A DNA stretch of 64,000 nt from an archaeon (GCA_024275415.1 JAJRZD010000012.1:17796-81795), one strand, 5' to 3'; shown: positions 1 through 61,653, counted from the first letter of the stretch. The notes: generated by a model from the letters alone, not told the origin. Translations and numbers: made by a program.

Positions 1-3000
1 GCCAGATGTAGGTTGCAGCAACACCCCCATCAGTTGCAGAAAGTATTGAAGTAGGAACCTTTTCCCAGAAGATGACCGTGCATGTGAACGGATTACCTAC
101 GTATGCCAGGTCGCTATCAAATGCAGGGTCATGAACCACAAGTGTTAGGTTACCGCTCATAGCAGCAGACAAGCTTCCACTATTTGTAGCATAGGACATC
201 ATATTCGAGTTCGAGGGATCGTAGGCACTTGCAAGCCGCACTAGCTCGTTACCTTCGGCAGTTGTGGAGTTCCAAAGATTCGGCATTCCATCATTCGGGC
301 TCCCATCGGTCCAGTCATAAAGGAATGACCATGGAGCACCATACGTGCTGATGTTAGCGTTATCAAAAGAAATCCCAATGGTGACATAGCTATACGTAGA
401 AACCAGCGAGTCATAAGTGGTTGTTCCAATCTGATCTCTAATGTTGTACCAGCCATACATCTGAGCTCCGGGCACGACAGTATCAGTGTATGTAAAAGTC
501 GTGGCAGAGAAAGAGATTGATTCTGCTTTCCTCCAATAATATGCAGATGTCGTCCAACCGGTAGTATCGGTGATCAATGTGCCTGACGCAGTTCCATAGA
601 TGTTCTGTGAGATGGTTGTCACTGAGCCGGGTACTACCTGTCCGAAGTATAAGGAGCCTTCAGCAAACCCTCTTGGAAGATTGCCTGTAGGAAACGGCGT
701 GGGCAGTAACGAGCGGGCGGATCCAATATCTGAAGCCCAAGCACCCTCAGATATGCTCATCAGGTTATCAAAAGAGTCTGTCGATTCTGCAATCAGTCCA
801 ACGTCATTCTCAACAAAATCGCACGCAGCCTGAGCATCGATTCTTCCGAATCCTTCAGTGGCAGGATCATAGCCCAGTCGTTTGGCCGTGTTTTGTATTA
901 TTGTCTTCACACGGTCAGGAGTCCAAGATACGCCTCGCGTGTTCAGGGATTCAATGACTAGTGCAGCTACTCCAGCTGCTACAGGAGCCGATTGGCTCGT
1001 TCCGCTAAACAGTGAAACATTGAGTTGTGAGCCATAATCCATCTTTGAACCGACCCAATATTGATGCAGGTATGGAGCATAGACAGGTCTGGGTGCGTAA
1101 GCTGCTAGCCCCGGTGCAACAACATCAGGTTTGGAATAGCCCAAGAACGAAGGCCCTTTGCTTGAGAAGGGTGCAATCCCTTCAACATCTTGCCCTGGTC
1201 CATAAAGATACTCGAGATATTGGTAGCTTGTGGACGCTCCCACTGTCAGAACTCCAGCAGCAGACCCAGGTGGCCCAATAGTCATAAAGCCCGAACCCTC
1301 ATTCCCTGCCGAGAACACTTGGAGTACACCCGGATAGGATGGGTCGAGGTATCCAGGGGTAGATAGTATTGTCCAGACCAGCGATAGATAATCCAATTCG
1401 CTGCTAGGAGCAACAACCCATCCCCAAGAGTTGGTTACAAGATCCGCTTGATGGTTGCCAGTGTAATAGAAGTCACCACTCTGTTCATTGTAATCAAATC
1501 CACAAGCCCAAAGGTATGCCCCCATCTCTGTACCTGACGACAGCGAACGTATAGACAGTATTTTGGATCTATTCGCAACTCCGGACATATAGAAGTAGGA
1601 ATCATTGTTTGGATCGTAATATTGGTAATTACCACGACTGGCAACATGAGCTGCCGTAGCGGTTCCATGTGTGTCGGCGTCAAAATACAGACTGACAGCC
1701 GCGCCATCCGAACGGAACCCGTTGAAGACAGTTTCATCAGCAAACCAACCATAAACGTCATAGAGCCAACTGATAGCCCCCAGACTATAATCATTGATTC
1801 CGTCGCCGTTCAAGTCAGCAGCCACAATGGGGTTTGTGTAATTGTAGGTGGCAACGCTGATGTCATCAGTGAAGTCCCAGTCGGATAAGTCGAGAATGGG
1901 CTGATAGTCAGCTGGATCTGTAAGGTTGACACTTTCATAGTAGAAGCCTCCATTCCAGAACCAAGACCAAGCTTCAGCTCCTTCCCAGTCGATTGCAAGA
2001 TTCCATTCGTTTGTTGTCGATGAGTTGTATACCAATGCAGGAGCGAATGCCTTCATGTAAGGACTATTTCTTTGTTGGAAGATGAAGCCAACCCGATAGT
2101 CACCTATCAGTTCAGAAGTGTCTGGCAGTTTGATGTCCTGCCATATATCATCTGCCATAGTCCCTACATCAATACCCCAATAATAGGCGTACAACCAGAT
2201 AAAGCCAAGACGATTGACATAGGGGGTCGTTTTATTTCCATCTCCGATTAGATATCTGGAACTGCCTTGGTTATTCAGCAGTGGATCCCACCCTGTGACA
2301 TTAAGATAAACACCGCTGGCATTCTGATAGGTCAAGACATTCCCGTTAGCTACCCATGATGCAGGGTCTGCTACGTAGGATGAATTGGCAAGTACCAGTG
2401 GATTCAAACCCAGTCCCGTCGGGTCATATGTGCCATTGTCATATGCATCCATCAGGTCAGGGACACCAAAGTCACACCCTGTGTCTATATGTCCAACTAC
2501 GACACCTTCACCGGTATAGCCAGACGCTACCGACCCTGTGGAGCCTACAATAGCACGGATCTCGGACATGTCCAATGAATACTCAGGTGATTGTGTCCCA
2601 TCAAAATCCGGCTTTGCAAATTCATCAACTCTGGGTGAGGTCAGCTTGTCAGCCCAAATCGCAGTCACACCGTTCAAATCGATGATTTTCCTTAGCGATT
2701 CTGCTGAGGGTAGTTCCACCTTGACCAACTTGAAGGCTTTGAAGTCCATTTTCCATTTTATATCTGCCAGTCCATCTAGTGTTTCCATGTCCGCCCATGG
2801 TGCAGAGTATATCAGGGCACCTGGGTTTCCATCGACGAGAGAGATTGAACTATCGATTGTCCCATCTGTAAGCCATGTTTCGAATAACGGATCAATATCG
2901 GGTCTGAAATCAGGTTCTGACCATGTGTCCCATAAGATCTTTGTAGTATCTTCGACTTCTTGAAGTGGGGAGTCACTAGACCCGGTGGATGTTGGCTCCG

Positions 3001-4734
3001 AGGCAGTCGGGCTCACGAACGATTCTAACTGTGGCCCTCCATGTCCAGAGAGTCCTCGGAAATAGTAAGGATTGCGTGTGAGCTCGATATATGAGCCTTG
3101 GACATAATCAGAGATATAGTATGGCCCCGATGTCACCATACGTTCTGCCAGAGGATCGGGATCCCATGTATTCCACCCATCAGTCCCGATGTCCTTAAAG
3201 TAATGTTTGGGAATTATGGGCAACTCCGCAAACGACGAGAGATGCCAATATGACTCGGTGTCAAATTCCACTACGAGTTTGTAATCTTGGGGAGCATAGG
3301 CAGCATATACTTCTTGCAGGTCTTCGTAGAATGGATTCCCGGAAGCCTCACGATAGTAGTTATATGAAAAGGCAATATCTTGAGCGGTAAGAGGGACTCC
3401 ATCTATCCATGTGGCATTTCGTACAATATTAAATGTAAACCGTGTATGGTTTACAGGAACCTCTGGGTTGTCAGCATGCGTTTCAGTGATATAGCTCTCA
3501 CAAAGCCAGTTCATTAGATTACCATCAGGATCTCTACGCAGGAGTGGATCATAAAGCTCATTGAGAACATTCCTCGTATATTCACTGGAGGTGGTCATGA
3601 AGTTGAAGGTATCTACATCAAGCGGAGTACTCCAACGGAAGGTTCCCCCATATGGACCACCGGACTGACTTTGCAATCTGACTTTCTGATTAGTCCACCA
3701 TGAAGGAATGCCTTTCACTGCGTCGTTGACATGTCCTTCAAATGCATCATTACGATAAGCAGAAACAATCTGGTTCTCATAACAAATGACCATCGGACTC
3801 TCATATACCCAGATTCTTTGCATTTCAATTGCAGCCTCATAGACCTTATCGTAGTCAGTTGAGTGGAGCAGCTGGTCGCGCCATGCGTCATAGGAGGCAT
3901 TCCTAAAGTTCGGGAAGTTGTAATATGGCTCATCAGCATATTCTGACCAGTACTCGTATGCCAGCCAGTCTACATCAAAATCAGGAAAGGTCATGCCCAA
4001 GAAGGCCATATCATAGTCATCATGGAAATAAAGTCGATTCACGTAGTCGTAGAAATCGGTAAGTATGGATGTCGCATTGACTGATATTGCAACTAGGGAG
4101 TCTGCTGCTTTCTGACCAATATTTATTGCAACACTCGATGATGATGCAACCTCAATTCGAACGTTAAAGTCTGAACCGTCGGGAGCTTCCCTGATGCCAT
4201 CAGAATCGATATCTAGGAACCCAGCTGCATCAAGTAGCTGATTCGCCTTTGCTAAATCAGCCGTGTAATAGTTATATGATAGTTGCCCTTCAATCGAAAA
4301 CGGATTGACTTGGGCAACTACACTGTCCTGCGGTACAGCCAGTCCATTCCATACATCAGTAGTGATTGCTTGTTTGTCCAGAGCAAAGGCAAATGCTCGT
4401 CTGAAAGAAGTTATATTGAATGGATATTTGGCCGTATTGATAGTGAGATAGCCATAACCATTTCGAAGATACGTTGATGTATCTATATCTGTAGCTGCAG
4501 ACAGTGTATCTAGAAACACCGGGTCTACACTATCACCAATCAGATCAATCTCGTTGTCCAGAAGTGCAAGTACCTGCTGGTCATCTTGTGCAATCACTTT
4601 GAACAAGAGCGTGTCAACATACGGACCTGCACCATCATAGTATCCTGCGGCGCTGACACCGGGTAAGGTGCCCATGCCAGAACTCAGTATCATTACCAGT
4701 ACAAAACATATTGATACAATTACTTTACGTACCA
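1..4734 (-). CDS. Secreted multidomain protein: family-5 ABC solute-binding (DppA/OppA-like) domain fused to subtilisin-like S8 serine peptidase; C-terminal part runs off window start (partial)
   Basis: The reverse-strand frame is uninterrupted from a TTG start at ~4734 to the window edge, with an in-frame TGA just upstream of the start. The N-terminus MVRKVIVSICFVLVMILSSGMGTLPGVSA looks like a signal peptide. The SBP5-like block YLTINTAKYPFNITSFRRAFAFALDKQAI matches DppA YLSYNVQKKPLDDVKVRQALTYAVNKDAI. S8 triad motifs are present: HIDTGCDF (Asp), HGTATAAHVAS (His) and SGTSQSAPVAAGVAAL (Ser). The frame is absent from the ORF track, presumably because it is edge-truncated. Confidence 0.7.
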
Positions 4735-5001
4735 AACCGAACCCCTCGTCTATTTGAGTTTTTCATATTTAGACTATGTGCAGAAAGTCAACCAGTAATT
4801 TCTATTTGGACTTAGTACGAGCGATTGCACATTAGAACGCAAACACCTCAACCCTTTACCACCATCGATTTTATGATATTCGATTGGACTTTCCACACGA
4901 GCCCTCATGCTTGAATGTAGATAAACCCTTCGCCTTTTTTGCTATGCACATTTTCTATTTCTATCGATATACATAACTATGATGAATGGGATTATCCAGC
5001 T

Positions 5002-16357: not shown

Positions 16358-16636
16358 ATGAGGTATTCTGGGAGATATAAGATGGGACATGACAGATTAG
16401 GACACTATAGCGTCTGTGAGAAGTCATTGCAGGTGACAAAAAAGAAGGCAGAAACGGATGATGACGTTCTTGCACTCGTTGTATTCGGGAGCTATGCTAG
16501 AGGCAAGCCCTACGATGATGTAGATATGGCAGTTGTCATATGGCCCTCAAGAACCGATTCACGTTGCATCTCATTCGCTGAGAGAATGGAACGATTTTCG
16601 CCTTCGATATTATTTGTATCTGGAAGGGATTCTTGA
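16358..16636 (+). CDS. Minimal nucleotidyltransferase (MNT/MntA-like antitoxin-type), orphan
   Basis: The NTase motif VLALVVFGSYARGKPYDDVDMAVV (GS...D.D) is present. No adjacent HEPN partner is found. Confidence 0.55.
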   Translation: MRYSGRYKMGHDRLGHYSVCEKSLQVTKKKAETDDDVLALVVFGSYARGKPYDDVDMAVVIWPSRTDSRCISFAERMERFSPSILFVSGRDS

Positions 16637-16936
16637 TGAATGAGCGACTCTTGGTTCAGATAGAAGAGGATGACCCGGCACAGGATAGGTAATCTCGTAT
16701 GCCTCCTTCGGGAATCCGTAATAATCGTAGAACACGTGCAGGTTTCGTGCTCCCAGCAAGGTCGCTTCACTCTCTTCCCAATGGGCACTTGTCACGACTA
16801 TTACATCAGGTATGGTCAATTGGTCAGGAAGACGCTGCATGAACTCAATCATCATCACATGGCTTGGGTCGCCAAGTATTGACAATGGGCCACCACCATG
16901 GGAGAGGTAGACTATCTCGACCATTTCAAAAAACAA
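16610..16936 (-). pseudogene. Truncated extradiol ring-cleavage dioxygenase class III (LigB / DOPA 4,5-dioxygenase YgiD-like), N-terminal ~40% only
   Basis: VYLSHGGGPLSILGD...VIVVTSAHWEESEATLLGARNLHVFYDYYGFPKEAYEITYPVPGHP aligns with E. coli YgiD residues ~15-110. It then drifts to ...PRVAHSSRIPSRYK-stop after 108 aa, where family members are ~260 aa. No continuation is found in the other frames. The 3' end overlaps the MNT gene. Confidence 0.6.
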
Positions 16937-17157
16937 AACTCCTAGTTGACAGATTAGTCATTCGACCAGTCTTCCGAATCATTACTATTTGTCCATGTGG
17001 CAGGAGGTTATGCAATGCACTCACTTGCGGTGCTCACATCTTAGTACATTGCGACCAAGAGTTCATGCCTGCTTCAAGATTGACGACCTTGCTCAATTCA
17101 CTCAGAGTCCCTTCCAATATCAGACAGGACAACTGTTACGTTCAGTGCTACCTCGAT

Positions 17158-17765
17158 TCAATTGTAGAATTCGACACCTTGGTCAATGTCGGAATGTACA
17201 TTCGTGCCGTCCTTTGTCCTGCCTTCTTCGTAGGTTGTACGGGATTCCATCGGAGCAACCGAGATGATTTTCGCAATCCCATGATATTCAAGGAGTTTCC
17301 TGTTAGAGATGTCGTTCCCTTGCTCATCTTGGATAATCCATTCATGTCCAGGCTCTATTGAGTCAAATTGCCAATCTTTCAAGCACGCCTCTCGAAAAGT
17401 GTCATCATCATCTTGAAGTATGTTCTTTGTTCTGTTCAAGTAATGTGAACTTTCAAGCACGCCTCTCGAAAAGTGTCATCATCATCACCATTGACAATGA
17501 CTTCTTTGCCAGTGTAAGCATCAATAACCACCCGCTGAATCAGAGAAGGATCTCGCGCTTCAGGAACCCGTCGTCTGAACCGAAAATCATCGGATATGAG
17601 AGTACTCTGTCCTGTTAAGAAAATCAGTAAAACTGACAGTGCCAGGCCAACTGACATCAGAAAACCAGTATATACCGGCATTGCCAATGAGATACCAGTT
17701 GTTGTCACAGCAATAACGACGATACACATGACTAGATAGCCAAAGTTTGTTTTTCTCGCTCTCAA
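17158..17765 (-). pseudogene. Membrane protein gene (2 TM + soluble domain) split into two ORFs by a 74-bp insertion
   Basis: ORF 17436..17765 ends ...NGDDDDTFREACLKVHIT-stop. ORF 17158..17460 begins (GTG) ...QDDDDTFREACLKDWQFDSIEPGHEW. The shared peptide is encoded by two perfect 37-bp direct repeats. Removing 17413..17486 restores one ~190-aa frame. Confidence 0.55.
17376..17486. repeat. Two perfect 37-bp direct repeats (ctttcaagcacgcctctcgaaaagtgtcatcatcatc) at 17376-17412 and 17450-17486 flanking a 37-bp unrelated spacer
   Basis: Read directly from the sequence. The period is 74 bp. The spacer ttgaagtatgttctttgttctgttcaagtaatgtgaa matches neither flank. Confidence 0.9.
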
Positions 17766-23083: not shown

Positions 23084-24562
23084 CTATTGGCTGCAACGAA
23101 CCGCAAGGAACCTGAGATACGCCTGCATCTCCTCTGAAAGATGAGGAGGCTTCCAATCTGAGCCATAGTCGCGGATATTGAGAGCATCAATGCCAGTCCT
23201 TTTTAGTTCCAGCTCGATACGTTCAAGCCCATTCAAGTCTGTAGACAAACCAATGCCCAACGCATTAAGTACCTCACAGCCATACACTGTGTACCACAAG
23301 AGGGTAGTATCATAATACTCGTCCTTTTTCACGATGTGGGCGCACTCCAACTCCTTTCTTCTTGCCTCAATGATTGTCGGAGAAAGCAATGCGATTGACG
23401 GAAATCTGTCTGCTAGGCTGAGATCGATGAAGTGTGTGGAACCTCCCTGTTTCACTTGCTTCACCAATGCGTCAGAGAGTCGTTCCATCAAGACTGCTCT
23501 CGCGTCTTCAAATGAGGACTCAGCATCAATGTCGTCAATGTGATCCAAGAGTGAGCCATCGTAACCTTGGAGGTGTTCTAGTTTCATGATCTCCAAGAAA
23601 GATATTCTAAGATGGTATCGAGCAAGATTGTTGAGCTTTGCATGGATCTCCCTGAACCTCGCTCTCACCACTCCAAACTCGTGAGCTCTCCATTCCTCAC
23701 GCTGAGCTGAGGTGGATATTCTAGACCTGATACTTTCAAGTCCCAGTGGCCAGACTGCTGAGCTAAACGGGAATGAGTCTATTGAGATGCGGGGCGAGAT
23801 GTGGGCTTCCTTCAAAAAGGGGAGCCCAAAGAGCGGCCACAGGTCTATTGTGGTAGAATCGATTCCTGAGATGTTGACCTGCTCTAATCGCTCACATTTG
23901 ACCAAAGGATACAGGTCTAGGTCGCGAACCTTATTCTGTGATATTCCAAGAACTCGTATGTTCGGGGTGGATGCAAAAGGCGAAAGGTCAAGCATTTCGA
24001 TTTTTGTCCAATCCACTAACAGTGTGTCGAGATTAGGACTGGTGTGCAGGAATGTGAGGTCTAGTGATGCGATAGGGTTCTCATTCAGAATGACATGCCG
24101 TAATTGCGGTTTGTTAGATAGGGGTGTCGTGTCAACTGCGCGTATCCAGTTGTGCGAAACATCGATGCTTTCAATCAGATGTGCTTGTTCAAGAGGTGAA
24201 AGGTCGAGCTCTTCCAATTGGTTGTCGCTGAGATTCACTTTTCGAATGCCAGGGCACCTGCGAAGAGGATTGAGATTTACAGCATGAATGTGGTTGTGTG
24301 AGATATCAATGGATTCCAAGGTCTCACCATTGGGCGAGCAAATGAATTCAGATAGTTCAATTCCCTCAAGGCGATTGTGACTAAGGTTCAGTGTTCTGAG
24401 ATGAGGCATCCTTGCTGCCTCGTTCAAGTCGACCTCGATGATGTCCAGACCAGAAAGGTCAAGGGTCTCATTATCAATTGGAAAAGAAAGGGTTTCTTTT
24501 TGCCGAGGTGAGTGTAAGATTTGTATCTCGATATATGGCATTGAGGCTGCAAGACTCCGCAT
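23084..24562 (-). CDS. Leucine-rich repeat protein (~12 LRRs) with ~170-aa helical C-terminal domain
   Basis: Repeated LxxLxLSxNxLxxLDLSPL units are present (LRTLNLSHNRLEGIELS, IRKVNLSDNQLEELDLSPL, LRHVILNENPIASLDLTFL and others). There is no signal peptide. Confidence 0.75.
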   Translation of the reverse strand: MRSLAASMPYIEIQILHSPRQKETLSFPIDNETLDLSGLDIIEVDLNEAARMPHLRTLNLSHNRLEGIELSEFICSPNGETLESIDISHNHIHAVNLNPLRRCPGIRKVNLSDNQLEELDLSPLEQAHLIESIDVSHNWIRAVDTTPLSNKPQLRHVILNENPIASLDLTFLHTSPNLDTLLVDWTKIEMLDLSPFASTPNIRVLGISQNKVRDLDLYPLVKCERLEQVNISGIDSTTIDLWPLFGLPFLKEAHISPRISIDSFPFSSAVWPLGLESIRSRISTSAQREEWRAHEFGVVRARFREIHAKLNNLARYHLRISFLEIMKLEHLQGYDGSLLDHIDDIDAESSFEDARAVLMERLSDALVKQVKQGGSTHFIDLSLADRFPSIALLSPTIIEARRKELECAHIVKKDEYYDTTLLWYTVYGCEVLNALGIGLSTDLNGLERIELELKRTGIDALNIRDYGSDWKPPHLSEEMQAYLRFLAVRCSQ

Positions 24563-31914: not shown

Positions 31915-32502
31915 TCACCCAATAAAATGATTGCTTTCCTTCGTTTCTTGAGATTCAGACATCATCCTTAGAAGGTCATTGAAAGTACTCTCGATATTAT
32001 ATCCTGTCTTAGCTGAGGTTTCCTTGAAGACCGCAGGAACGCCCAGTTTCTCGATGAAATACTCTGTGAACTTCCGTCCTTCGTCGGCAGTTACACGTTC
32101 CTCCTCTGGAACCGTTTCACGAAGGTCTGTCTTGTTACCTACAATGACTGTAGGTGGTAGAGGTCCCATATTCTTGTAGGCCTCTACTAACCACTTGCTC
32201 GCGTTGTCAAAGGAGTCCCGATCCACTGTGGAATAGACTAGAATGATACCATTGCAGCCGTGGTAGTAATGTCCTCGAACCTGTTTAAATGATGGCTGAC
32301 CAGCAAGATCCCATATTATGAATTTGACGATCTCATTATCGAACAGGACTCGTTTCGTGGCGAGGTCAACACCAATGGTTGCGATGTGTCCTTCAATGAA
32401 CTCATCTCCGAGATAGTTACGTCTAATCGATGTCTTACCTACCGCACCATCCCCAATTAGGACAGCTTTCATTATTTTTGAGCCATCATCTTGATCTCTC
32501 AT
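31915..32502 (-). CDS. Ras-superfamily small GTPase (Rab/Ras-like)
   Basis: G1 is GDGAVGKT. The switch I Thr is in TIGVD. G3 is WDLAGQ. G4 is GNKTD. G5 is ETSAK. There is no C-terminal prenylation motif. The likely start may be the internal ATG at 32472 (MKAVLIGDG). Confidence 0.85.
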   Translation of the reverse strand: MRDQDDGSKIMKAVLIGDGAVGKTSIRRNYLGDEFIEGHIATIGVDLATKRVLFDNEIVKFIIWDLAGQPSFKQVRGHYYHGCNGIILVYSTVDRDSFDNASKWLVEAYKNMGPLPPTVIVGNKTDLRETVPEEERVTADEGRKFTEYFIEKLGVPAVFKETSAKTGYNIESTFNDLLRMMSESQETKESNHFIG

Positions 32503-42544: not shown

Positions 42545-43645
42545 TCATGGCAGCACAGAAGACGATATCGAAACGTCATGTAACATGAGGAGATCCACCA
42601 TCACGAAAGCCGTCAAATTCTCGACGACCGGGACAGCGCGAGGGACGATACACGGATCATGTCGTCCAGTTACCCTCAACTCTGTTGTTTTTATTTCCGC
42701 CAAGTCAATAGTTGTTTGAGGCTTAGATATGCTTGGAGTGGGTTTGAAGGCGGCTCTGAACACGATTGGAGCCCCAGTGCTCAACCCACCTAGGATACCG
42801 CCTGCGTTATTGCTCCTCCAAACGAGTCCATTGGATGTGTATTCCACCTGGTCATTGTGGTCAGACCCGTTCATAGAAGCAGCCTTGAACCCAGCCCCGA
42901 ACTCGATGCCCTTCACACCGGGGATACTGAACATAGCGTGGCTTATACGACTCTCGATGGAATCAAACAACGGCTCACCTACTCCTATAGGGAGATTCAG
43001 TACACGACACTCGACTATACCACCAACCGAATCACCTTCACTTCGCGCCCGAAGGATCTCCTCTTCCATAAGTCGAGATACATTGGTATCAATGCATCCA
43101 GTGGAGTTGGAATGCTTGCATCGAGCAAGCTCGTCGTCGGTAGGGTTCTGCTCCAAAGCGATATTTCCAACTTGGACTGTATGAGCTAGGACACTAATGT
43201 TCCGTATAGAAAGGATTTGCTTTGCGACTGCCCCTGCCAACACGTACACTGCGGTCATGCGTCCAGAGAAGAATCCGCCACCCCGATAGTCGTTGAATCC
43301 ATTGTATTTGTAGAATGCGGTGAAGTCTGCATGTCCGGGTCGCGGAGTGTTTTTCATACGCTCATATGCATCCGACTGAGAATCCCTGTTCTGAATCACC
43401 ATCATAATCGGCCCTCCAGTGGTGACTCCATCAACGACACCTGTTTTCACATCGAACTGGTCTGTTTCATCCCGTGAGGAACTTGTGTGATACAGTCCGG
43501 GTCTTCGCCGTGCAAGCTCGTCCTCGATTATCTTGTAGTCCAGTTCGAGACCTGCTGGACAGCCCTCGATGCTGACCCCGATACACTCTCCATGACTTTC
43601 CCCAAACACATGAATCTTGAAGTGTCTACCCATGCTAAAGGTCAT
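42545..43645 (-). CDS. aroC: Chorismate synthase
   Basis: N-terminal FGESHGECIGVSIEGCPAGL and the overall AroC signature. There is a 4-bp overlap with aroA. Confidence 0.9.
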   Translation of the reverse strand: MTFSMGRHFKIHVFGESHGECIGVSIEGCPAGLELDYKIIEDELARRRPGLYHTSSSRDETDQFDVKTGVVDGVTTGGPIMMVIQNRDSQSDAYERMKNTPRPGHADFTAFYKYNGFNDYRGGGFFSGRMTAVYVLAGAVAKQILSIRNISVLAHTVQVGNIALEQNPTDDELARCKHSNSTGCIDTNVSRLMEEEILRARSEGDSVGGIVECRVLNLPIGVGEPLFDSIESRISHAMFSIPGVKGIEFGAGFKAASMNGSDHNDQVEYTSNGLVWRSNNAGGILGGLSTGAPIVFRAAFKPTPSISKPQTTIDLAEIKTTELRVTGRHDPCIVPRAVPVVENLTAFVMVDLLMLHDVSISSSVLP

Positions 43646-44931
43646 GACGCATATCCACTCCTCTGGATTAGGGTCGCACGAGCGCCCAGGGTCAGCATAT
43701 CACGCATGAAACTCGGATAGCTTTTTGTGCTACACTCGAAGCAGTCTATGGTGGTGGTGCCCTCAGCAACAGTACCAGCAACGAATGCAGCCATAGCAAT
43801 CCGGTGGTCATTATGGGGATTCACACTGGCACCATGCAGTCGTGTGGGTCCCTCAATCCGTAACGAGTCCTGCTCGTGTGCGATATCAACATTCATCTTA
43901 GACAGTTCGCTGATCGTGGTCTGGATCCTATCGCTCTCTTTCAACTTGAGCCTGCGGACGTTCTTCAAGACCGTAGTGCCATCAGCCTGAGATGCCACGA
44001 CTGCGAGGATCGGGACGAGGTCTGGAATATCGCTGACATCGACCGTGATTCCTTGCAGGGGACGTTTCCTCACAATGACTCCTTTCTGATAACATTCAAC
44101 GGATGCACCCATCTCTCTGAGAAGCCTCACAAACTTGGAGTCGCCTTGTACCGAAGCCTCGTGCAGTCCGATGACCCCGACACTCCCTGTAAGGGCACCA
44201 AACGCCTCAAGGAATGCAGCAGATGAATGGTCACCCTCGATATGGATCGTCTGTGCGTGATATCGTTGACTGCCGGGAATAATGAAACGGTCTGATGAGT
44301 GATGGACGTATGCGCCAAACATCCGCATCAGTTTCAGGGTCATCAGAACATAGGGCTTTGACTCGAGGCGTGAGGTAAGGACAACCTCACATTCATTTCG
44401 TGCCTTTGACCCTGCCATGAGCAGCGATGATATGAACTGCGAACTTATATCACCACGGATTAAAGTAGAACCCCCTTCGAGACCGTCACCCCGCACCTCT
44501 ATAGGTGGAAGGGCGTCACCATTTACTGAGTGGATGTTTGCGCCCCAGTCATTGAGAGAGCGAACGAGGTCACTAATGGGTCGCTGATGCAATGAGGGGT
44601 CTCCAAGAAGTAGTGAAACGCCATCAGCGAGAGAGGCAAGCCCAACGAAGAGCCTGAATGTCGTTCCCGAGCTCCCGCAATAGATGATCCCGGAAGAGGG
44701 AGCCGAGTTTCCAAGTCCTTCAATACTCAAATGACCATTCAGATGGATCCTTGCACCCAGCAGACGGGCAGCATCAATCGTGGCTTTGGTGTCGTCACAT
44801 ATCAGCGGATTAGGTATGTGTGTCTTGCCTTCAGCCAACATACCACATACGATCGCGCGATGAGTAAGGCTATTGGAAGGGGGGGCATGATGCCAACCAG
44901 TCGCGCTAGACCTCTTGACACGTACTTTCAA
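43642..44931 (-). CDS. aroA: 3-phosphoshikimate 1-carboxyvinyltransferase (EPSP synthase)
   Basis: The ORF is 429 aa. EPSPS motifs are LLGDPSLHQRPI, GNSGTTFRL-like (GSSGTTFRLF) and NDHRIAMA. Confidence 0.9.
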   Translation of the reverse strand: MKVRVKRSSATGWHHAPPSNSLTHRAIVCGMLAEGKTHIPNPLICDDTKATIDAARLLGARIHLNGHLSIEGLGNSAPSSGIIYCGSSGTTFRLFVGLASLADGVSLLLGDPSLHQRPISDLVRSLNDWGANIHSVNGDALPPIEVRGDGLEGGSTLIRGDISSQFISSLLMAGSKARNECEVVLTSRLESKPYVLMTLKLMRMFGAYVHHSSDRFIIPGSQRYHAQTIHIEGDHSSAAFLEAFGALTGSVGVIGLHEASVQGDSKFVRLLREMGASVECYQKGVIVRKRPLQGITVDVSDIPDLVPILAVVASQADGTTVLKNVRRLKLKESDRIQTTISELSKMNVDIAHEQDSLRIEGPTRLHGASVNPHNDHRIAMAAFVAGTVAEGTTTIDCFECSTKSYPSFMRDMLTLGARATLIQRSGYAS

Positions 44932-45440
44932 AGGTGTAGCCTCCTACAAATCTCGGTGACGATACAGTTGATGTCCTTTCCATCTGTGTCGATTTCGATG
45001 TCACAGGCTCTCGCATAAAGATTCTCTCTGAGTCGCATCAAGTCAATAATTGCCCGCAGCCTCTCATTTTCAGTTTCCAGTAGTGGACGGCTATTGTCCC
45101 GAAGTAGTCGTTCATGGATTGTGAGTGGGCTGGCCTTCAAGAGGATGACTTTGGAAACCCTCCTGATATGCTCGATGTTCTCTTGAGAAAAAAGAACACC
45201 GCCACCAAAGCTTAACACATGATGTTTCCTCTGACAGAGGTCTCTTACAGCAAGGGATTCAAGATGTCTGAAGTATTCTTCTCCATTCTCAGCAAATATC
45301 CTTGAAACCTGCTTTCCAGCCATCTGTTCTACCATGTCGTCCGAGTCTTCAAAATGCATCCCTATCTGCCTTGCCAGTGCCTTGCCTACAGAGGTCTTTC
45401 CCGTCCCCATGAATCCGATGATACCAATGTTGGGTTTCAT
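44928..45440 (-). CDS. aroK: Shikimate kinase, bacterial P-loop (AroK/AroL) type
   Basis: The Walker A is IIGFMGTGKTSVGKALA. The E. coli AroK-like layout is followed (FEDSDDMVE...GGGVLFSQENI). Confidence 0.85.
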   Translation of the reverse strand: MKPNIGIIGFMGTGKTSVGKALARQIGMHFEDSDDMVEQMAGKQVSRIFAENGEEYFRHLESLAVRDLCQRKHHVLSFGGGVLFSQENIEHIRRVSKVILLKASPLTIHERLLRDNSRPLLETENERLRAIIDLMRLRENLYARACDIEIDTDGKDINCIVTEICRRLHL

Positions 45441-46318
45441 GACTTCCGGACTCTCCCCTTTTCATGACTCCTTCCCTGCTCATCGATTGCAGCCAGAGCA
45501 GCCGCGCGCATGACACCTATGGAAGGTTCCCTACCAGTCCAGATGCGGAGCGATTCGGCACCTTGATGAACCAGCATCATCACTCCATTGATGGTTCTGC
45601 ACCCTTCATCTTCTGCCATAGCGAGGAGCTTTGTACGGGGAGGGTTATAGTTCAGATCCATCACTGACAGCCCATTCATCAGTTCGCTATCAGTGACAGG
45701 TGACTCGTTCTCGTATACGCCTCGCATCCCAAGAGGAGTGCAGTTGATCACCATGTCACTGTGCCGGACATAGTTCGGAAACTCCTCAAGTCGACCGGAC
45801 ACAACAGAAGCATTCCCTCCGCTGCGCAAGACCCTTGCAAGATCTCTCGCTCTCTCGACATTACGGTTCAGGATGAAAAGGTTCGGCACATCATGCTTGA
45901 GAAGACTGTGACAGATAGATCTGGCTGCACCGCCAGCGCCAATAACAATGCATCGGGTCGATGGTATGTCGATGCGTGATTCTTGCAAGGACTTGATGAA
46001 CCCAACTCCATCCGTTGAACACCCAACAACCATTCCTTTGTGGGAATAGAGCGTGTTAACAGAACTAGTTTGCACAGCGTCCCCACCAATCCTGTCAATA
46101 AAAGGGACTATGACTTCCTTCAAGGGTGCAGTGATGTTAGCTCCCGTAATTTGACCATCTGCTATATCATCAATCAGCTGTTGGACATCCTTTGGTCTCA
46201 TCGGGTTCCTGTCGTAATGATATTCCCTTGAAAGTCCCAGATCTGCGAGGGCTGCATTATGCATCTGGGGACTCACAGAATGGGCTATATGGGTTCCCAC
46301 GACACAAAGTCGCTTCAC
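45437..46318 (-). CDS. aroE: Shikimate 5-dehydrogenase
   Basis: The substrate-binding N-terminus is SPQMHNAALADLGL. The NADP Rossmann motif is VIGAGGAARSI. Confidence 0.85.
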   Translation of the reverse strand: MKRLCVVGTHIAHSVSPQMHNAALADLGLSREYHYDRNPMRPKDVQQLIDDIADGQITGANITAPLKEVIVPFIDRIGGDAVQTSSVNTLYSHKGMVVGCSTDGVGFIKSLQESRIDIPSTRCIVIGAGGAARSICHSLLKHDVPNLFILNRNVERARDLARVLRSGGNASVVSGRLEEFPNYVRHSDMVINCTPLGMRGVYENESPVTDSELMNGLSVMDLNYNPPRTKLLAMAEDEGCRTINGVMMLVHQGAESLRIWTGREPSIGVMRAAALAAIDEQGRSHEKGRVRKS

Positions 46319-46998
46319 GTATTGAACACCTCCATAATCTCCTTCATCTCTGGTAGGGACAACTGACCTGGCGCCGTTTCATTTCCCGAATTGGTTGCCA
46401 CATAGGCAAAGGGAGCCCCAAAGAGCGTCGACAAAATCCTCGTGTAGGTGCCAAGAAACCCCATCGAGAACGCAATAAGGTCGCATTTGTGCTTTTGATT
46501 ATACGAGTACAACCGTAGAATCCTATGTCCATCGTCAATGCGTTTAGCGAATGTCACGATCTTGATGATATCGGGGGCCAGAGATATCATGTCCTCCATC
46601 GTTCCTTTCAGGTACTCGAAGGGAGGAGTTCCCTCGAAATAGTGCTTTGACAAGATGACCCCGCATCCTGCATCGTGAGCATAATCGATGATCGAGCTTC
46701 GAGACCACATTGGACTCTCATACTCGATATCGACAAAGGATGCTCCAGAGCTAATGGCGGCCCGAAGGAGCGATATTCGGTTTCTTTCACTGCCAGCAAA
46801 GTGTCCGCCTTCTCTAATGGGTCTGTTTGTGGCGATGACAGGAACATGGGTCGAGGAATATACCTCTTCGATCCCCTTAGTGCACTCGAGAAAATCAATT
46901 CGATGTTCTACAAGGTCTGCATCCAATCTCTCAATTGATGTTATGCAGTCATCTATCGAGGAATACCTTAATGATACACAGAACCTCATCGACCTCAT
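46315..46998 (-). CDS. aroD: 3-dehydroquinate dehydratase, type I
   Basis: It aligns with E. coli AroD (LVEHRIDFL; catalytic Lys region IIKIVTFAK; SKHYFEGTP ~ SNHDFHKTP). Confidence 0.8.
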   Translation of the reverse strand: MRSMRFCVSLRYSSIDDCITSIERLDADLVEHRIDFLECTKGIEEVYSSTHVPVIATNRPIREGGHFAGSERNRISLLRAAISSGASFVDIEYESPMWSRSSIIDYAHDAGCGVILSKHYFEGTPPFEYLKGTMEDMISLAPDIIKIVTFAKRIDDGHRILRLYSYNQKHKCDLIAFSMGFLGTYTRILSTLFGAPFAYVATNSGNETAPGQLSLPEMKEIMEVFNT

Positions 46999-47819
46999 CT
47001 CCTATTCATGCCATGTACGCAACCATGCTTTACTGCGCTAACGAATTCCTGTATTTTGTTGAGCGAAACGAATGGGTCATGCAAACACCCTTCATACATC
47101 TTACATATCGCACTGCCGACAATAACCCCATCTGCACCAGCCTCCACGAGAGCCTGTGCATGATTTTCGCTTGATATTCCAAACCCTACAAGGACAGGGA
47201 TAGAACTGAGTTCCTTCACTCTTCTTACAAGCCCAAGTGTACCCGTCTGAACATTGTCACGAGTCCCTGTCACACCAGAAACGGCCGTCACATACACAAA
47301 GCCCTGACACACCTGAAGAATACCGTTCAGTCGCGCAGTAGAAGTGCTCGGGCTGACAATCTGAATCAGGTGGATGTCGAACTCCCTTGTTATCTCGTAC
47401 ACATAACTGCATTCCTCCAGAGGTAGATTCGGAACAATCACCCCATTGGCACCAGACACTGCAATCTGCTCAATGAAGTCCCTTGCGCCCATCCTATGAA
47501 TGATATTGTAGTAGCTGGTGACGACCACAGGAGCGATGATTCCCATGTCACGAATCCGCTCTATCCCTTGGATTGCCCTGCGTGGAGTCATTCCCGCTTC
47601 AAGTGCTCGCTTGCAAGCCCTTTGGAACACTGGGCCATCCGATGTCGGGTCGGAGAACGGGATTCCGAACTCGATGATGTCCACTCCGTTCTTGGTCATG
47701 GAGTCGATTAGACGTAGCGAGAACTCCTCTGAGGGGTCTCCAAAATAGGTATGGGCCATGAAAACGGGATTACCTGAAACGAATAACGTGTCCAGTTGGT
47801 TTGAATATGATTGCATCAT
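46995..47819 (-). CDS. trpA: Tryptophan synthase alpha subunit
   Basis: [18 protein letters not shown], plus the TrpA TIM-barrel pattern. Confidence 0.9.
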
Positions 47820-49024
47820 GTACCCTCCTCCAACTCCACAATCATACTGACATCCTTGTCACCCCGTCCTGAAAGACACACTACTATGATGTCATCGGAC
47901 GAAAGAGAGGGGACAATCTCCTCTAGGTATGCAATCGCATGGGCACTTTCCAAGGCCGGTATGATTCCCTCTAACCGTGACAACTTCTTGAACCCTGCCA
48001 GTGCCTCGTCATCAGTGACACTGACATACTGCACTCTACCGATAGCATGTAGGTGCGCGTGTTCAGGGCCTACGCCAGGGTAGTCGAGCCCCGCGGAGAT
48101 CGAATGGGCTTCCAGAATCTGCCCATCGCTATCTTGCAGGAAATAGCTTCTTTGCCCATGAAGGACACCGGGTTCTCCTGCGGTGATAGAAGCACCGTGC
48201 ATCCCTGATGTGATCCCTTTACCGCCAGCTTCCACACCTATGAGTTCCACTGGGTCGTCAATGAAGGCGCTGAACATCCCGATTGCATTGCTTCCTCCAC
48301 CGACACATGCCACGATATGTGTAGGAAGTCTCCCAGTTTCTGCAATGACCTGCTCACGAGTTTCGGTGCCAATCACAGACTGGAAGTCCCGAACGATGGT
48401 CGGATACGGATGTGGCCCGACTACTGAGCCAATGACATAATGTGTCGTGCTGCTTGTGGCCGCATAGTCACGCAGGGCTTCGTTTATAGCATCCTTCAGT
48501 GTACGTGAACCAGATTCGACAGGAACGACCTCTGAACCAAACAGCTTCATGCGGTAGACGTTCAGCTTTTGGCGAGTAATATCTACAGCCCCCATGTACA
48601 CGACGCATTCAAGACCGAGTGCTGCACACGCTGCGGCAGTCGCGACACCGTGCTGTCCTGCCCCAGTTTCAGCAATGATACGGGTCTTGCCCATCATCTT
48701 TGCTAAGAGGACTTGGCCGATAGTGTTGTTGACCTTGTGAGCGCCGAGATGACACAAGTCTTCTCGTTTGAGATAGACCTGCGCACCACCCAGATCATCC
48801 GTAAGCCGTGCAGCATGATAGAGTGGCGTGGGTCGTCCGACCAGATGAGTGAGATACTTATGATACTTTTTTCTGAACGAAACATTGGGTGTGATGTCGC
48901 GGTAAGCGTCTTCGAGTTCCTTTATCGCAGGCATGAGCGTTTCTGCAACAAATTGGCCACCGAATTCACCGAAATAGGGGCCGTGTTCCGTGTTCTGTGT
49001 CATCTCCGTGTTCCTCCTTTGCAT
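47816..49024 (-). CDS. trpB: Tryptophan synthase beta subunit
   Basis: The PLP-lysine region is HLGAHKVNN. Other motifs are GGGSNAIG and GVGPEHAHL. Confidence 0.9.
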
Positions 49025-49653
49025 TGCGAGAGAAACCTCCTCACAAGCATCCGGTCCTTTTTGCCAACCTCTTCCTCCACACCGGAGGAAACATGAATGG
49101 CGTAGGGCCTTGTCGCAAGGGCATCTGAGAGAGTATCAGGAGCTAGACCGCCGGCTAACGCAAAACGTCCATTGCAAAAAGGTAAGACATGCTTCCTTAA
49201 CATCGAGATGTCTATGCAGAAGCCCCGTCCACCATATACTCCATGTCTGCTAGGTTCGAACGAGATAATGTCAGACACTTTACTCATCTCGGTCAGGTTC
49301 GGGATAGGGCATCCTGACAGCGAGTCGTCCTGCGGAACTAGCATGACACTAGTACACTTGAACCCATGATCGTGTATCGTTTCGACTGCATCGATTCCTA
49401 GGTTGTAGACCTGCACCATATCAACATCAGCGGATCGTGCGTCATCACAGACTCTCTCGATGTCTGATGACGTAAAGATGCCAGTCACATGGACAAGTGG
49501 ACCAAGCTGCTCACGTATCTCCTTAGCTAGCCCAATGGGTATCTCTCGCGCCCGGTCAGCAGCAAGCACCAATCCGATAGCATCAGCGCCTTCCTCTTCG
49601 CACATTAGAGCGTCGGCTAACGATGTGATGCCACAAATCTGCACCCTGGTCAT
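49000..49653 (-). CDS. trpF: Phosphoribosylanthranilate isomerase
   Basis: [29 protein letters not shown]. The start is chosen at the internal ATG 49653 (ATGA overlap with the trpC stop). The ORF track's start at 49776 adds an atypical 41-aa extension overlapping trpC. Confidence 0.8.
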
Positions 49654-50462
49654 TCTTGCACCCCCGCGAACTCGGTCACGACGCTGCGACCCGTACGGAC
49701 TAGGTCGCCCACTGCTTGCTTGGGGTCTGATGACCTCATCAATGACGTGCCAACAAGTACAGCATCGACCCGACACCCCGAAAGAGAATAGACTTTCTCT
49801 ATGTCAGAGCCAGTGGTGATCCCTGATGCTGCTACAAGCACCGTGTCTTCTGGTAGATTCTTTGCAATGGCAATGTTGGAAAGGTCAATCCTGAGATCGG
49901 AGTAGATGTTCCGTGCGTTTACTAAAATAATGTGTGCTCCCGCGGAAAGCGCAGATTCGAGTTCTTTCTCGTTTGACACTTCAATGACAGCGTCAAGTCC
50001 AAGTCGTTCACCGATGTCTATGAGTTCTCCCAGGTCGCCGCCAACAGATTCCACGACACGAACCATCAACAGGAATGCATCGGCTCCAGCAGATACGCAG
50101 TCTGCCAGATGCTGAGGTGTGAAAAAGAAGCCCTTTGCCAACAGTGGCAGTCGAACAACCTTCCTTGCAAATCTCAGCAGGTCAAATGAGCCGTTAAAAT
50201 GCATCTGCTCCACGAGAACCGAAATCCCTGTGGCGCCACCCTCAATATAGGCTCGTAAGATAGGATCAGGGGTAAGGTCTCCAGCGGATAGAGGACCATT
50301 GGAAGGTGATGCGGGTTTCAGCTCAGATATTACACGAACCCCTGTGCAGTGCCCATGCATCAATGCATCACGCAACCGAATAGAGACCTCAGTTACATCC
50401 GATAGCTTCGACTCGACTATCTCCCCAACAGTTTCTCCTAGCCGTGCTCGCAACATGCTCAT
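49650..50462 (-). CDS. trpC: Indole-3-glycerol phosphate synthase
   Basis: SELKPASPSNG and the IGPS barrel motifs. Confidence 0.85.
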   Translation of the reverse strand: MSMLRARLGETVGEIVESKLSDVTEVSIRLRDALMHGHCTGVRVISELKPASPSNGPLSAGDLTPDPILRAYIEGGATGISVLVEQMHFNGSFDLLRFARKVVRLPLLAKGFFFTPQHLADCVSAGADAFLLMVRVVESVGGDLGELIDIGERLGLDAVIEVSNEKELESALSAGAHIILVNARNIYSDLRIDLSNIAIAKNLPEDTVLVAASGITTGSDIEKVYSLSGCRVDAVLVGTSLMRSSDPKQAVGDLVRTGRSVVTEFAGVQE

Positions 50463-51478
50463 CCCTCCTTGAACAGCTTCAGGCTGTAGTTCCTGAAGGA
50501 CTCGAACTTCGCCTTTGCATGCCCTTCGACAATTGCGTTCCGTGCGAGTTCGATACCTTCACCTATGTCTTTGACCATATTACTGACATAGAGCCCAGCC
50601 CCTGCATTCAGGAGGACTATGTCCACATACGGGGAAGGGTTGCCATCCAGCACCTCAGTCAGTATCTTTGCATTGGTGTCTGGCGACCCTCCTGCTATGT
50701 CTCGGACATGCACACGAGCAAGACCGAAGTCATCCGGTGTGATCTCGTAAGATTCCACCTTGCCATGTTCCAGTTCCGAAATCCTTGTGGATCCAGTAGT
50801 CGTCAGCTCATCAAGCCCTGAACCATGTGCGACGATTGCGTGTTCCAGTCCGAACCTACCAAGCACCTTTGCGAGAGGTTCCGTCAACTCCGAATCGTAG
50901 ACACCCATGAGCTGGTACTTTACGTTAGCAGGGTTTGTCAGCGGTCCAAGGACGTTGAAGACTGTACGCAACCCCAGCTCTCGACGTGGGGCAATGGCGT
51001 ACTTCATCGCATGATGGAACAATGGCGCGAACAGAAACCCAATCCCGATGTCGTTCACGCACCTCTCGGTCTGCAGTGGTGTTAGGTCTATATGGACTTT
51101 CAGTTCCTCAAGAAGATCCGCAGAGCCACATTTGCTCGAAACGCTGCGATTGCCATGCTTTGCAACAGGTGTGCCAGCTGATGCGATTACGAAAGCGGAA
51201 GCCGTGGATATGTTGAACGTGCCCAGTCGGTCGCCCCCAGTCCCACAGGTGTCGAGCGTGTTCTCAGGCACAGATATGCCGATTGCCTTCTTGCGCATGG
51301 TCTTGGCGAAGGCATAGAGTTCTTCCACAGTTTCGCCTTTCATCCGCAGAGCTGTGAGGAACCCTGCAATCTGGGGAGCGCTGGTCACGCCATCCATGAT
51401 GTTCGACATCGCGAGTGCAGCCTCGGCCTCGTTCAGATCCTTTCGTTCCACAAGTTTCTCCAGTACATCTCGAATCAT
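50459..51478 (-). CDS. trpD: Anthranilate phosphoribosyltransferase
   Basis: CGTGGDRLGTFNISTASAFV, plus the N-terminal helical domain. Confidence 0.9.
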   Translation of the reverse strand: MIRDVLEKLVERKDLNEAEAALAMSNIMDGVTSAPQIAGFLTALRMKGETVEELYAFAKTMRKKAIGISVPENTLDTCGTGGDRLGTFNISTASAFVIASAGTPVAKHGNRSVSSKCGSADLLEELKVHIDLTPLQTERCVNDIGIGFLFAPLFHHAMKYAIAPRRELGLRTVFNVLGPLTNPANVKYQLMGVYDSELTEPLAKVLGRFGLEHAIVAHGSGLDELTTTGSTRISELEHGKVESYEITPDDFGLARVHVRDIAGGSPDTNAKILTEVLDGNPSPYVDIVLLNAGAGLYVSNMVKDIGEGIELARNAIVEGHAKAKFESFRNYSLKLFKEG

Positions 51479-52500
51479 GTAAGCACCTCCTTGACGAGTC
51501 TTGACCGTACAGGAGTCTGCCGCACCTCGGACATGAATTCTCTGAACATGTCGAATGTCAATGACTGCGGACCGTCTGACACGGCCTCAGCAGGGTTCGG
51601 ATGTACTTCGATGATGAGACCGTCAGACCCGACAGCCAAGCTCGCTCGTGCAAGGGGAATGACAGTACTCCGCTTGCCTGCCGCATGGCTCGGATCAACG
51701 ATGATCGGGAGATGTGTCAAGCTACGCAGCTCAGGTATCGCCCCGATGTCCAGAGTGAATCGCGAGTGATTACTGTAGGTTCGGATCCCTCTCTCGCAGA
51801 GGATGACATTGTAGTTCCCTTCAGACATGACGTACTCCGCAGCCAAAAGGAACTCGTTGATCGTTGCAGATATCCCTCTCTTCAGTAGGACGGGTTTCTT
51901 GGAGCGTCCTGCCCTCCTCAGAAGCTCGAAGTTCTGCATATTCCTCGCACCTATCTGAATGACATCGACATAACGTTCTACAAGTGGGAACGACTCGATA
52001 TCCAGAGCCTCTGACACGACTGGTAGTCCGGTTCTCATTCTGGCTGCATTGAGTATCTTCAGACCTTCGAGACCCATGCCTTGGAAAGAGTATGGAGATG
52101 TCCGTGGTTTGAAGGCACCTCCTCTAAGCATGTCAGCACCCATCTCTGCGACAGCCGAGGCAGTCGTAGTCATCTGTTCATATGATTCAACCGCACAGGG
52201 TCCTGCAATGATGACAGGGTTCCCTTCACCAAACTGTGCATCTCCTATCTCGATAACTGTTTGTTCTGGTATCATCTCTCGGCTCGTCAGCTTGAATGGT
52301 TTTGTCACATGGATGATTTCTAGCACGCCTGCCATGCCCCCGATGTGGTCTGCATTCACGCGGCCAATGTTTCCAGTGACACCGATCGAAGTTCTCATCG
52401 AACCGGGTATTGGATGGGGTATGAGGCCAATCTTCCGGATGGCATCAACAACCCGATGTATTTGTTCGTCAGTTGCGTCCTTTCTCATTACTACTAACAT
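51475..52500 (-). CDS. 3-deoxy-7-phosphoheptulonate (DAHP) synthase, type Ibeta, with N-terminal ferredoxin-like regulatory domain
   Basis: [23 protein letters not shown]...[11 protein letters not shown] parallels Thermotoga DAHPS (MIVVLKPGSTEEDIRKVV...VLKPYKLVSRE). A KDO8PS-like barrel follows ([10 protein letters not shown]). The ORF track's start at 52530 overlaps aroB; M at 52500 is preferred. Confidence 0.8.
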
Positions 52501-53582: not shown

Positions 53583-53585
53583 CGA

Positions 53586-61312: not shown

Positions 61313-61653
61313 ACAGCTGCGCTAAACGTACCCAAACGTGGACGTCCCTTAGATGGACAGCCGAAGTAATGCATAGGGCTTTATAGACCCGACCACTCCT
61401 ACAGGAGTATGAGGACGACATGGCACACAAACGGCCTCGCAGAGTCCACCCAGTGCCGTTCTCTTGGAGTACAACACTCTGGTGACCAAGGTTGTACAAC
61501 TAAAAATGAACGGTAAGGCACATTCCTATCCTCAATACGATAGACAACCTCGACCAGCAGAACCCGAACTCGTCGACACCACCCCCAACGCAAGATCCGC
61601 CTACGGGAGGTTCGCAAAGTACTATCGATTATGATGGCACAGGTTTTGGAAAG

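Follow-up and report, generated by a model that had tools for sequence, protein, structure and literature searches.

How does a conserved gene come to be interrupted by an exact second copy of a piece of its own coding sequence, with an unrelated segment of the same length lying between the two copies? The question is raised by a small membrane-protein gene on the minus strand of a 64,000-nucleotide stretch of archaeal DNA (GCA_024275415.1, contig JAJRZD010000012.1, positions 17796-81795; hereafter the window, in whose own numbering all positions below are given unless another sequence is named). In this gene two identical 37-nt sequences enclose a 37-nt insert, and the coding sequence is divided into two open reading frames (ORFs). 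We find that the locus carries an insertion with an exact 37-bp duplication of its target, that the gene was intact before this event, and that the target resembles the 37-nt CRISPR repeats of Asgard archaea. The insertion is most likely the work of the spacer integrase Cas1-Cas2, which would have struck a site that is repeat-like but non-CRISPR, leaving a one-spacer 'neo-CRISPR' unit, a reading to which we give a probability of roughly 0.55.

The split gene and its ancestral state

The elements of the locus, in the order in which the gene is read, are the following.

17436..17765, minus strand: N-terminal ORF fragment, 109 amino acids (aa) from a TTG; the public protein P0001 has 97 aa, from an internal ATG
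17450..17486, minus strand: copy a of the 37-bp target-site duplication, 5' in the sense of the gene; sense sequence GATGATGATGACACTTTTCGAGAGGCGTGCTTGAAAG, encoding DDDDTFREACLK; exact repeat
17413..17449, minus strand: insert ('spacer'), sense sequence TTCACATTACTTGAACAGAACAAAGAACATACTTCAA; unique in the window and present in none of the homologues
17376..17412, minus strand: copy b of the 37-bp target-site duplication, 3' in the sense of the gene; 100% identical to copy a
17158..17460, minus strand: C-terminal ORF fragment of 100 aa (P0002 among the public proteins); its start lies inside copy a and the insert

The two copies (CTTTCAAGCACGCCTCTCGAAAAGTGTCATCATCATC, at 17376-17412 and 17450-17486) are 100% identical and spaced 74 nt from start to start, where the number of 37-nt repeat matches expected in shuffled sequence is 0.00. 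Their identity cannot be extended past either end, with t/a as flanking bases on the left and again t/a on the right, so that the boundaries of the copies are objective, to about 1 nt. The window holds no further copy of the repeat at up to 3 mismatches, and the exact 37-mer has 0 matches in 185,579 species-representative genomes. Nor does the 64-kb window contain another repeat of this kind, a tandem array (Tandem Repeats Finder, TRF) or a CRISPR array. The segment between the copies (17413-17449, 37 nt, TTGAAGTATGTTCTTTGTTCTGTTCAAGTAATGTGAA) occurs only once in the window, both strands included, when up to 3 mismatches are allowed, and has a GC content of 30%, against 47.6% for the window. 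It shares k-mers of 10 nt at most with other parts of the window, which equals the shuffle null, and its best ungapped match there is 22/37. A first-pass annotation, made from the sequence alone, had reported two perfect 37-bp copies around a 37-bp segment matching neither flank. Coordinates and identity are as it described, and the lack of any match to the flanks holds in the window search and in the k-mer and ungapped comparisons. It was also right to set aside a simple tandem duplication, since the intervening 37 nt have no match in either flank and TRF reports no tandem array.

At the DNA level the consequence is a frameshift that divides the gene into two ORFs. The N-terminal fragment carries the membrane segments and an RDPSLIQRVV motif, and its stop falls inside the insert; the C-terminal fragment carries the family residues W107, F109, W118, D122, N126, I128 and V173. 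The two halves are found as P0001 and P0002 on one NCBI contig. Removal of 74 nt, that is, of one copy plus the insert, yields a single ORF of 177 aa reading ...VIVNGDDDDTFREACLKDWQFDSIEPGHEW..., and the junction of the empty site reads ...GCCAAT/CTTTCAAG...CATCATC/ACCATTG... (slashes mark the borders). Both minus-strand ORFs of the first-pass annotation, its frame arithmetic and the continuous frame that it expected after the 74-nt deletion were thereby confirmed.

What the gene looked like before can be read from its relatives. A word-indexed protein search returned only the two halves themselves and one 181-aa protein, at 38% identity, and no Pfam model matched the family. An exhaustive profile search retrieved 100 representative clusters at E <= 1e-3, 67 of them at E <= 1e-10 (the family clusters, about 100, were defined at 50% identity and comprise proteins P0004-P0101). 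These relatives are nearly all single-piece proteins of 145-200 aa, and by its similarity to them the split gene belongs to a well-conserved, uncharacterised family of small membrane proteins of that size. We aligned the repaired 177-aa protein with 19 of the profile-search relatives. The family consensus is ...PRDPSxIxRVVxD...G...TTFRxACLxDWxF...WIIxDERGNDIS...GVEFYD, with GVEFYD at the C-terminus. All 19 aligned relatives run uninterrupted through the junction, as do protein P0003 and both paralogues at a related Thorarchaeota locus (L002, described in the last section). The duplicated segment holds the near-invariant T98, R100 and A102, between the invariant G93 and W107, and the two halves of the gene have kept every invariant residue of the family without further lesions.

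Because all relatives are continuous and the duplicated segment is conserved, the comparison points to the single-copy gene as the ancestral state, to the 'repeat' as native coding sequence that was duplicated, and to the 37-nt segment as the part that was inserted. A comparison of orthologous loci, which the first-pass annotation had proposed, leads to the same picture: the relatives and the syntenic Thorarchaeota locus lack the insertion, which argues for an event private to the source genome and against an imported repeat. Among the explanations that annotation had listed, our results thus favour the small insertion that left a long target duplication as its footprint, as the homologues are colinear, the duplicated 37-mer is native and the insert has no template in the window.

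Origin of the insertion

Integration of a spacer by Cas1-Cas2 would account for this structure in a simple manner. The enzyme attacks both strands of its target in a staggered fashion, exactly one repeat-length apart, and repair of the gaps duplicates the target between the paired attacks, giving target copy, spacer, target copy. In such a product the duplication has the length of a repeat and the insert that of a spacer; here both are 37 bp. The locus indeed shows an exact duplication of a non-CRISPR target around an unrelated insert, at a site that was single-copy in the ancestor. Published Asgard repeats are mostly exactly 37 nt long and end in ATTGAAA[C/T], with spacers of 35-41 nt, and the Thorarchaeia metagenome-assembled genome 7H_max40_bin013 has been assigned a 37-nt repeat (GTTACAACTAGTATCTCAATGTAGTGAGAATTGAAAT) with spacers of 40-41 nt (10.1101/2021.07.29.453957, Table S4/S1). 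CRISPR-Cas systems of types I and III have been reported in Thorarchaeota (10.1101/2021.07.29.454249). The 37/37-bp geometry fits the Asgard repeat and spacer sizes at the level of the lineage, the comparison being with other Asgard genomes.

At its borders, and in having G/C where the two strands would be attacked, the target itself also looks like a true repeat, though this was spotted post hoc. On the sense strand G1, G37 (C on the opposite strand) and TTGAAA at positions 31-36 are in register with nine of ten Asgard 37-nt repeats. The combination of G1 with TTGAAA at 31-36 occurs at 7 sites in 128 kb of both strands (5.5e-5 per position, against 3.5e-4 for TTGAAA alone). A small hairpin lies in the 3' half of the target, as it does in genuine Asgard repeats. 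That the insert is AT-rich and untemplated from the window is a further point for integration by Cas1-Cas2.

This type of event has precedents. In Pyrococcus furiosus, Cas1-Cas2 also uses non-CRISPR sites for full-site integration, the two cuts of a pair lying exactly one repeat-length from each other and preferably at G/C; the repeat's G1 and A23/T24/T25/A28/A29 are conserved at the off-target sites, one preferred site being only 43% identical to the repeat (PMC6698737). That system and our locus have in common an archaeal setting, the ...TTGAAAG repeat class and paired attacks at G/C: where the P. furiosus off-target sites conserve G1 and the 3'-terminal T24, T25, A28 and A29, the present target has G1, a 3' TTGAAAG and 35-46% identity to Asgard repeats. 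They differ in that the P. furiosus repeat has 30 bp and was studied in a plasmid assay, whereas ours is a genomic footprint of 37 bp. Off-target integration by Cas1-Cas2 was reportedly described by Nivala, Shipman and Church in 2018 (in Nat Microbiol 3:310). In the descriptions given in 10.1101/148544, PMC11788318 and PMC7054753, off-target integration in Escherichia coli in vivo produces 'neo-CRISPR' units, and the natural cases mentioned there are circumstantial. The E. coli units share with our locus a spacer-sized insert, a non-CRISPR target duplicated over one repeat-length and a limited likeness to the repeat, and there too genes can be struck. Yet they arose under over-expression of Cas1-Cas2, whereas the Asgard event is natural, apparently fixed, placed in a conserved ORF and of 37/37 bp, and it is seen by its footprint. 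We infer, from this footprint, both Cas1-Cas2 as the agent and the existence of such a system in the source genome. The insert would most likely be a spacer-sized piece of foreign or distant DNA, acquired in a one-off event private to the lineage.

Several observations weigh against an origin by Cas1-Cas2. The target is identical to real Asgard repeats at only 13-17 of 37 positions (35-46%), the G1...TTGAAA match was noticed after the fact, and we deal with one single event, known from a metagenome-assembled contig alone. Pfam and PADLOC scans of the window proteins revealed neither cas nor defence genes, and the 64 kb contain no CRISPR array. No similarity to the Rfam CRISPR-DR families appeared, even at E values up to 10, and the only Rfam matches were noise at E of about 6.5, including a snoRNA-like match on the GAUGAUGAUGA run. 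Finally, no convincing protospacer for the insert was found in IMG/VR, the JGI metagenomes, or GenBank phages and plasmids. The exact 37-mer of the insert had 0 matches in IMG/VR and 0 in the JGI metagenomes, and three patterns of it with N at every third base had 0 matches in IMG/VR. Searched by halves against IMG/VR, the insert gave three 18-mer matches ending at the seed (22-24/37 overall); its 21-mer core gave one match in the metagenomes (CEWR01293008.1), which extends to 26/37 only and was judged a chance match rather than a protospacer. Comparison by blastn with GenBank phages and plasmids returned only partial matches of 20-28 nt, at E >= 0.1. Most Asgard spacers also have no known targets, so the missing protospacer is weak evidence.

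The locus is neither a canonical CRISPR array, nor an insertion of an insertion sequence (IS), a miniature inverted-repeat transposable element (MITE) or a casposon, nor a tandem duplication. Transposable elements of these kinds also sit within direct target duplications and disrupt genes, but their duplications measure 2-15 bp, whereas here the duplication has 37 bp, and the insert, of just 37 bp, has no terminal inverted repeats and no further copies. In detail, IS elements duplicate 2-14 bp of target and casposons 14-15 bp, and we know of no transposase or repair pathway that yields a 37-bp duplication. This matters for the broader idea of an origin outside CRISPR adaptation, in which a staggered double-strand break, or a pair of nicks at a distance of 37 bp, would have been filled in and sealed with 37 bp of captured filler DNA, or an unknown miniature element would have inserted and left an exceptionally long target duplication. 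Such an origin agrees with the reality of the insertion and its duplication, with the lack of cas context and of a protospacer, and with the fact that the data do not directly identify the enzyme. Yet it predicts neither that the length of the insert equals that of the duplication and the modal repeat and spacer size of Asgard archaea, nor the in-register G1...TTGAAA, and the insert has no other copy and no local template. We regard it as rather unlikely. The copies could also be thought to stem from a tandem duplication followed by divergence, from gene conversion or from a slipped-strand phase switch, the last two having been raised in the first-pass annotation. Direct repeats of 37 bp can indeed mediate precise deletion, so that reversion to the intact gene is possible. 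But under divergence the intervening 37 nt would have come to match nothing in the window, at the k-mer and ungapped levels given above, with both copies staying 100% identical. Local templating of the insert is ruled out by the same comparison. As the insert was not copied from the window, we can exclude tandem duplication as well as local template switching, and likewise a gene conversion whose donor lay nearby. A more distant donor finds no support either, with no other copy of the repeat in the species-representative genomes and no copy of the insert in the metagenome collection. As for a switch, slippage between the copies could only revert the insertion and never re-create it, which would make the locus at best a lesion revertible one way. 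Of all explanations this group receives the least credence from us.

A working miniature CRISPR array would be a different matter: Cas6 would process the transcript of the gene into a CRISPR RNA with a 37-nt spacer. The gene is apparently driven by a promoter and the unit does have its sense orientation, and the last 8 nt of its repeat (CUUGAAAG) resemble the AUUGAAA[C/U] end of Asgard repeats. The match to real repeats is, however, limited to G1 and the last 6-7 nt within an overall identity of 35-46%, and there are no Rfam CRISPR-DR similarity, no nearby cas genes, only one spacer and no target found. Canonical arrays have at least three regularly spaced, dedicated non-coding repeats, whereas here two copies enclose one spacer, and the 'repeat' is conserved coding sequence with no match to the Rfam CRISPR-DR families and no other copy in the window or the species-representative genomes. 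Adjacent cas genes and a leader are lacking as well, the sequence upstream of copy a being the gene's own coding sequence. A functional array is therefore highly improbable. Hardly less so is an artefact or chimera of the assembly, with a single-copy gene in the true genome, which we consider very unlikely. The contig is metagenome-assembled and the locus occurs in only one public contig. However, a unique 37-nt insert must derive from reads that contain both junctions, and assemblers produce exact overlaps or duplications, not a novel segment between identical 37-mers. The structure is moreover internal to an 86.8-kb contig, and both halves were called as proteins in the public annotation. 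Integration by Cas1-Cas2 thus remains the reading that we favour. The first-pass annotation had seen the CRISPR-like geometry; it did not arrive at off-target integration by Cas1-Cas2, and it missed the folding potential of the transcript, to which we now turn.

Predicted pairing between the two copies on the transcript

The bulge-helix-bulge (BHB) of archaeal introns is defined as a 4-bp helix between two 3-nt bulges that are cut between bulge residues 2 and 3; in mRNA such introns are described only from crenarchaeal cbf5 (16-44 nt) and from one Haloferax mRNA (PMC7714728, PMC2738675). We searched the locus for this motif in all registers with cleavage sites 74 nt apart. One register, on the sense strand only, gives 8 bp / AGG / 4 bp / AGG / 8 bp between the two copies, with the bulges exactly 74 nt apart. 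The predicted elements, read 5' to 3' on the transcript, are these.

17376..17472, minus strand: potential inter-copy BHB (prediction only, from an explicit search, a null and ensemble energies)
17472..17465 with 17383..17376, minus strand: outer helix of 8 bp, in which nt 15-22 of copy a (UUUUCGAG) pair with nt 30-37 of copy b (CUUGAAAG)
17464..17462 and 17390..17388, minus strand: AGG bulges, cut AG/G
17461..17458 with 17387..17384, minus strand: central helix CGUG/CGUG, 4 bp
17457..17450 with 17398..17391, minus strand: inner helix, 8 bp, copy a nt 30-37 with copy b nt 15-22
17462..17389, minus strand: predicted 74-nt 'intron'; the AG/G cut in both bulges would give the 177-aa ORF

By computation, excision at AG/G in both bulges takes out exactly 74 nt and leaves the in-frame ORF of 177 aa. 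Flanking helices of at least 8 bp would arise in 8.6e-4 of random 37-mers of the window if these were duplicated, and the antisense strand forms none. The homologous 37-mers of the relatives reach flanking helices (k) of 0-3 bp. The BHB is not a generic by-product of likeness to a repeat, an explanation that we rejected because ten genuine Asgard repeats give flanking helices of 3 bp at most. In the thermodynamic ensemble the helices between the copies have base-pair probabilities of 0.5-1.0, against about 0 for the local hairpins, and the inner helix runs on into the insert for 15 bp. In the sense RNA (17413-17449 plus 17399-17412) the insert's first 15 nt show complementarity to its last 5 nt together with the first 14 nt of the downstream copy. 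This potential pairing, of 23 bp, has a 17-nt loop and four 1-nt bulges and would lengthen the inter-copy helix, although it may be due to chance; the regional z-score is -2.1.

These predictions allow the idea that the 74 nt act as a newborn BHB intron, which EndA would cut and RtcB ligate, giving the 177-aa ORF and a 74-nt circle, predicted to be GCGUGCUUGAAAG-insert-GAUGAUGAUGACACUUUUCGAGAG. The idea concerns the consequence of the insertion and not its origin, and is compatible with integration by Cas1-Cas2. In its favour, the 8-3-4-3-8 geometry fits the published definition at a chance of 8.6e-4, is formed neither by genuine Asgard repeats nor by the homologous 37-mers of relatives, and restores the ORF when cut between bulge residues 2 and 3. 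Pairing between the copies strongly outweighs the local hairpins in the ensemble, and both halves of the gene keep all invariant residues with no secondary lesions. A very recent insertion would, however, explain the intact halves equally well. The strict register is disfavoured because its CGUG/CGUG central helix contains tandem G.U pairs: it reaches -6.8 kcal/mol, against -15.3 for a central helix shifted by one nucleotide (with 2x1 loops), a difference of 8.5 kcal/mol, and -10.4 without a central helix. The z-score of the whole region is only -2.1, translating ribosomes may block the folding, and the mRNA precedents are confined to crenarchaeal cbf5 and the one Haloferax mRNA. On balance, we think it doubtful that the transcript is processed in this way.

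The comparison with the cbf5 introns illustrates both sides. The 4-bp helix, the two 3-nt bulges, the outer helices and a frame restored by cutting and ligation are the same. Here, however, the BHB would arise from two identical stretches of exon sequence produced by the target duplication, the intron would have 74 nt instead of 16-44 nt, the central helix is weak and not the favoured one, the host is an Asgard archaeon, and the whole is predicted only. A looser parallel is offered by the Introner elements of eukaryotes, transposon-generated introns in which the target-site duplication provides a splice site. There, too, the target duplication made by an insertion supplies the signals for its own removal from RNA, but those elements are multi-copy and depend on the spliceosome, whereas we deal with a single event and another splicing chemistry. 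Put together, a misfire of the integrase could have created a new intron in one step: the duplicated 37-bp hairpin target would supply two copies that pair as a BHB, the protein would still be made, and a 74-nt circle bearing the spacer would be released. This scenario, modelled from the predicted fold, is an unlikely one in our estimate.

Host genome and meaning of the locus

A protein-guided scan of the species-representative genomes for the split-gene family returned a single locus, L002, which lies on a 'Candidatus Thorarchaeota archaeon isolate C14-20' contig. It is syntenic with the window: a GNAT acetyltransferase (56% aa identity) divergently adjoins the split-gene family in both, and they share a molybdopterin oxidoreductase (74%), a CitMHS transporter (70%), an M29 peptidase (83%) and a large GNAT protein. 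The window is therefore chromosomal DNA of a Thorarchaeota-like Asgard archaeon. In L002 the family is represented by two tandem paralogues (165 aa at 2658-3155 and 181 aa at 3169-3714 of that locus), behind which comes a DinB-like gene. In the window there is a single member of the family, and the CitMHS transporter lies on the opposite side of the GNAT gene relative to L002. These differences in copy number and in the position of CitMHS reflect local rearrangement between the two genomes. The window also encodes a Ras/Roc-family small GTPase (31915-32502; Pfam Ras, E = 4e-41) and a leucine-rich-repeat protein (23084-24562), typical Asgard 'eukaryotic signature' genes that are consistent with the assignment to Thorarchaeota.

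The neighbourhood of the split gene and the rest of the window call for few comments. Between the molybdopterin oxidoreductase and the split gene, the interval 16358-16936 holds a 92-aa ORF of the Polbeta/MNT nucleotidyltransferase type on the plus strand and, overlapping it on the minus strand, a 108-aa ORF with a sub-threshold match (22 bits, cut-off 26.3) to the N-terminal quarter of the LigB extradiol dioxygenase, which may be a gene remnant; no convincing ORF lies in the adjoining interval 16940-17157. On the minus strand (42545-55432), thirteen genes that all point the same way and mostly overlap encode the complete shikimate pathway, from 3-deoxy-D-arabino-heptulosonate 7-phosphate (DAHP) synthase to chorismate synthase, joined in a single cluster with the genes for tryptophan synthesis (trpE, G, D, C, F, B, A). 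Positions 1-4770 form a single minus-strand frame that stays open for at least 1,588 codons, a giant protein gene leaving the window at its left edge, and the small ORFs inside this frame had no Pfam matches. We rejected the notion that these first ~4.8 kb are an ORF-poor anomaly, as they consist of this single ORF running off the window edge. Two unannotated genes, 57945-58784 and 61654-62367, share a 34-nt direct repeat with 85% identity at their 5' ends (57985-58018 and 61547-61580); they are probably paralogues and have no matches in Pfam or PADLOC. No tRNA or rRNA was found in the window, nor any Rfam element at gathering thresholds.

Off-target integration of spacers is well shown in the laboratory, and has been proposed both as a birth route of new CRISPR arrays and as a hidden cost of the adaptation module, but natural, datable footprints of it are very scarce. 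We classify the locus as a probable new natural case, from an Asgard archaeon, of this already known type of event, one in which the empty site can be reconstructed and the duplicated target is defined to the nucleotide. If the potential BHB is processed, the locus would also show how an archaeal mRNA intron can originate in one step; if it is not, we have before us simply a recent and private gene disruption. In Asgard archaea, including Thorarchaeota, almost no CRISPR biology has been studied by experiment, and for these organisms the locus may provide an in vivo readout of what a possible Asgard Cas1-Cas2 recognises: a 5' G, a 3' TTGAAAG and the spacing of a 37-bp ruler.

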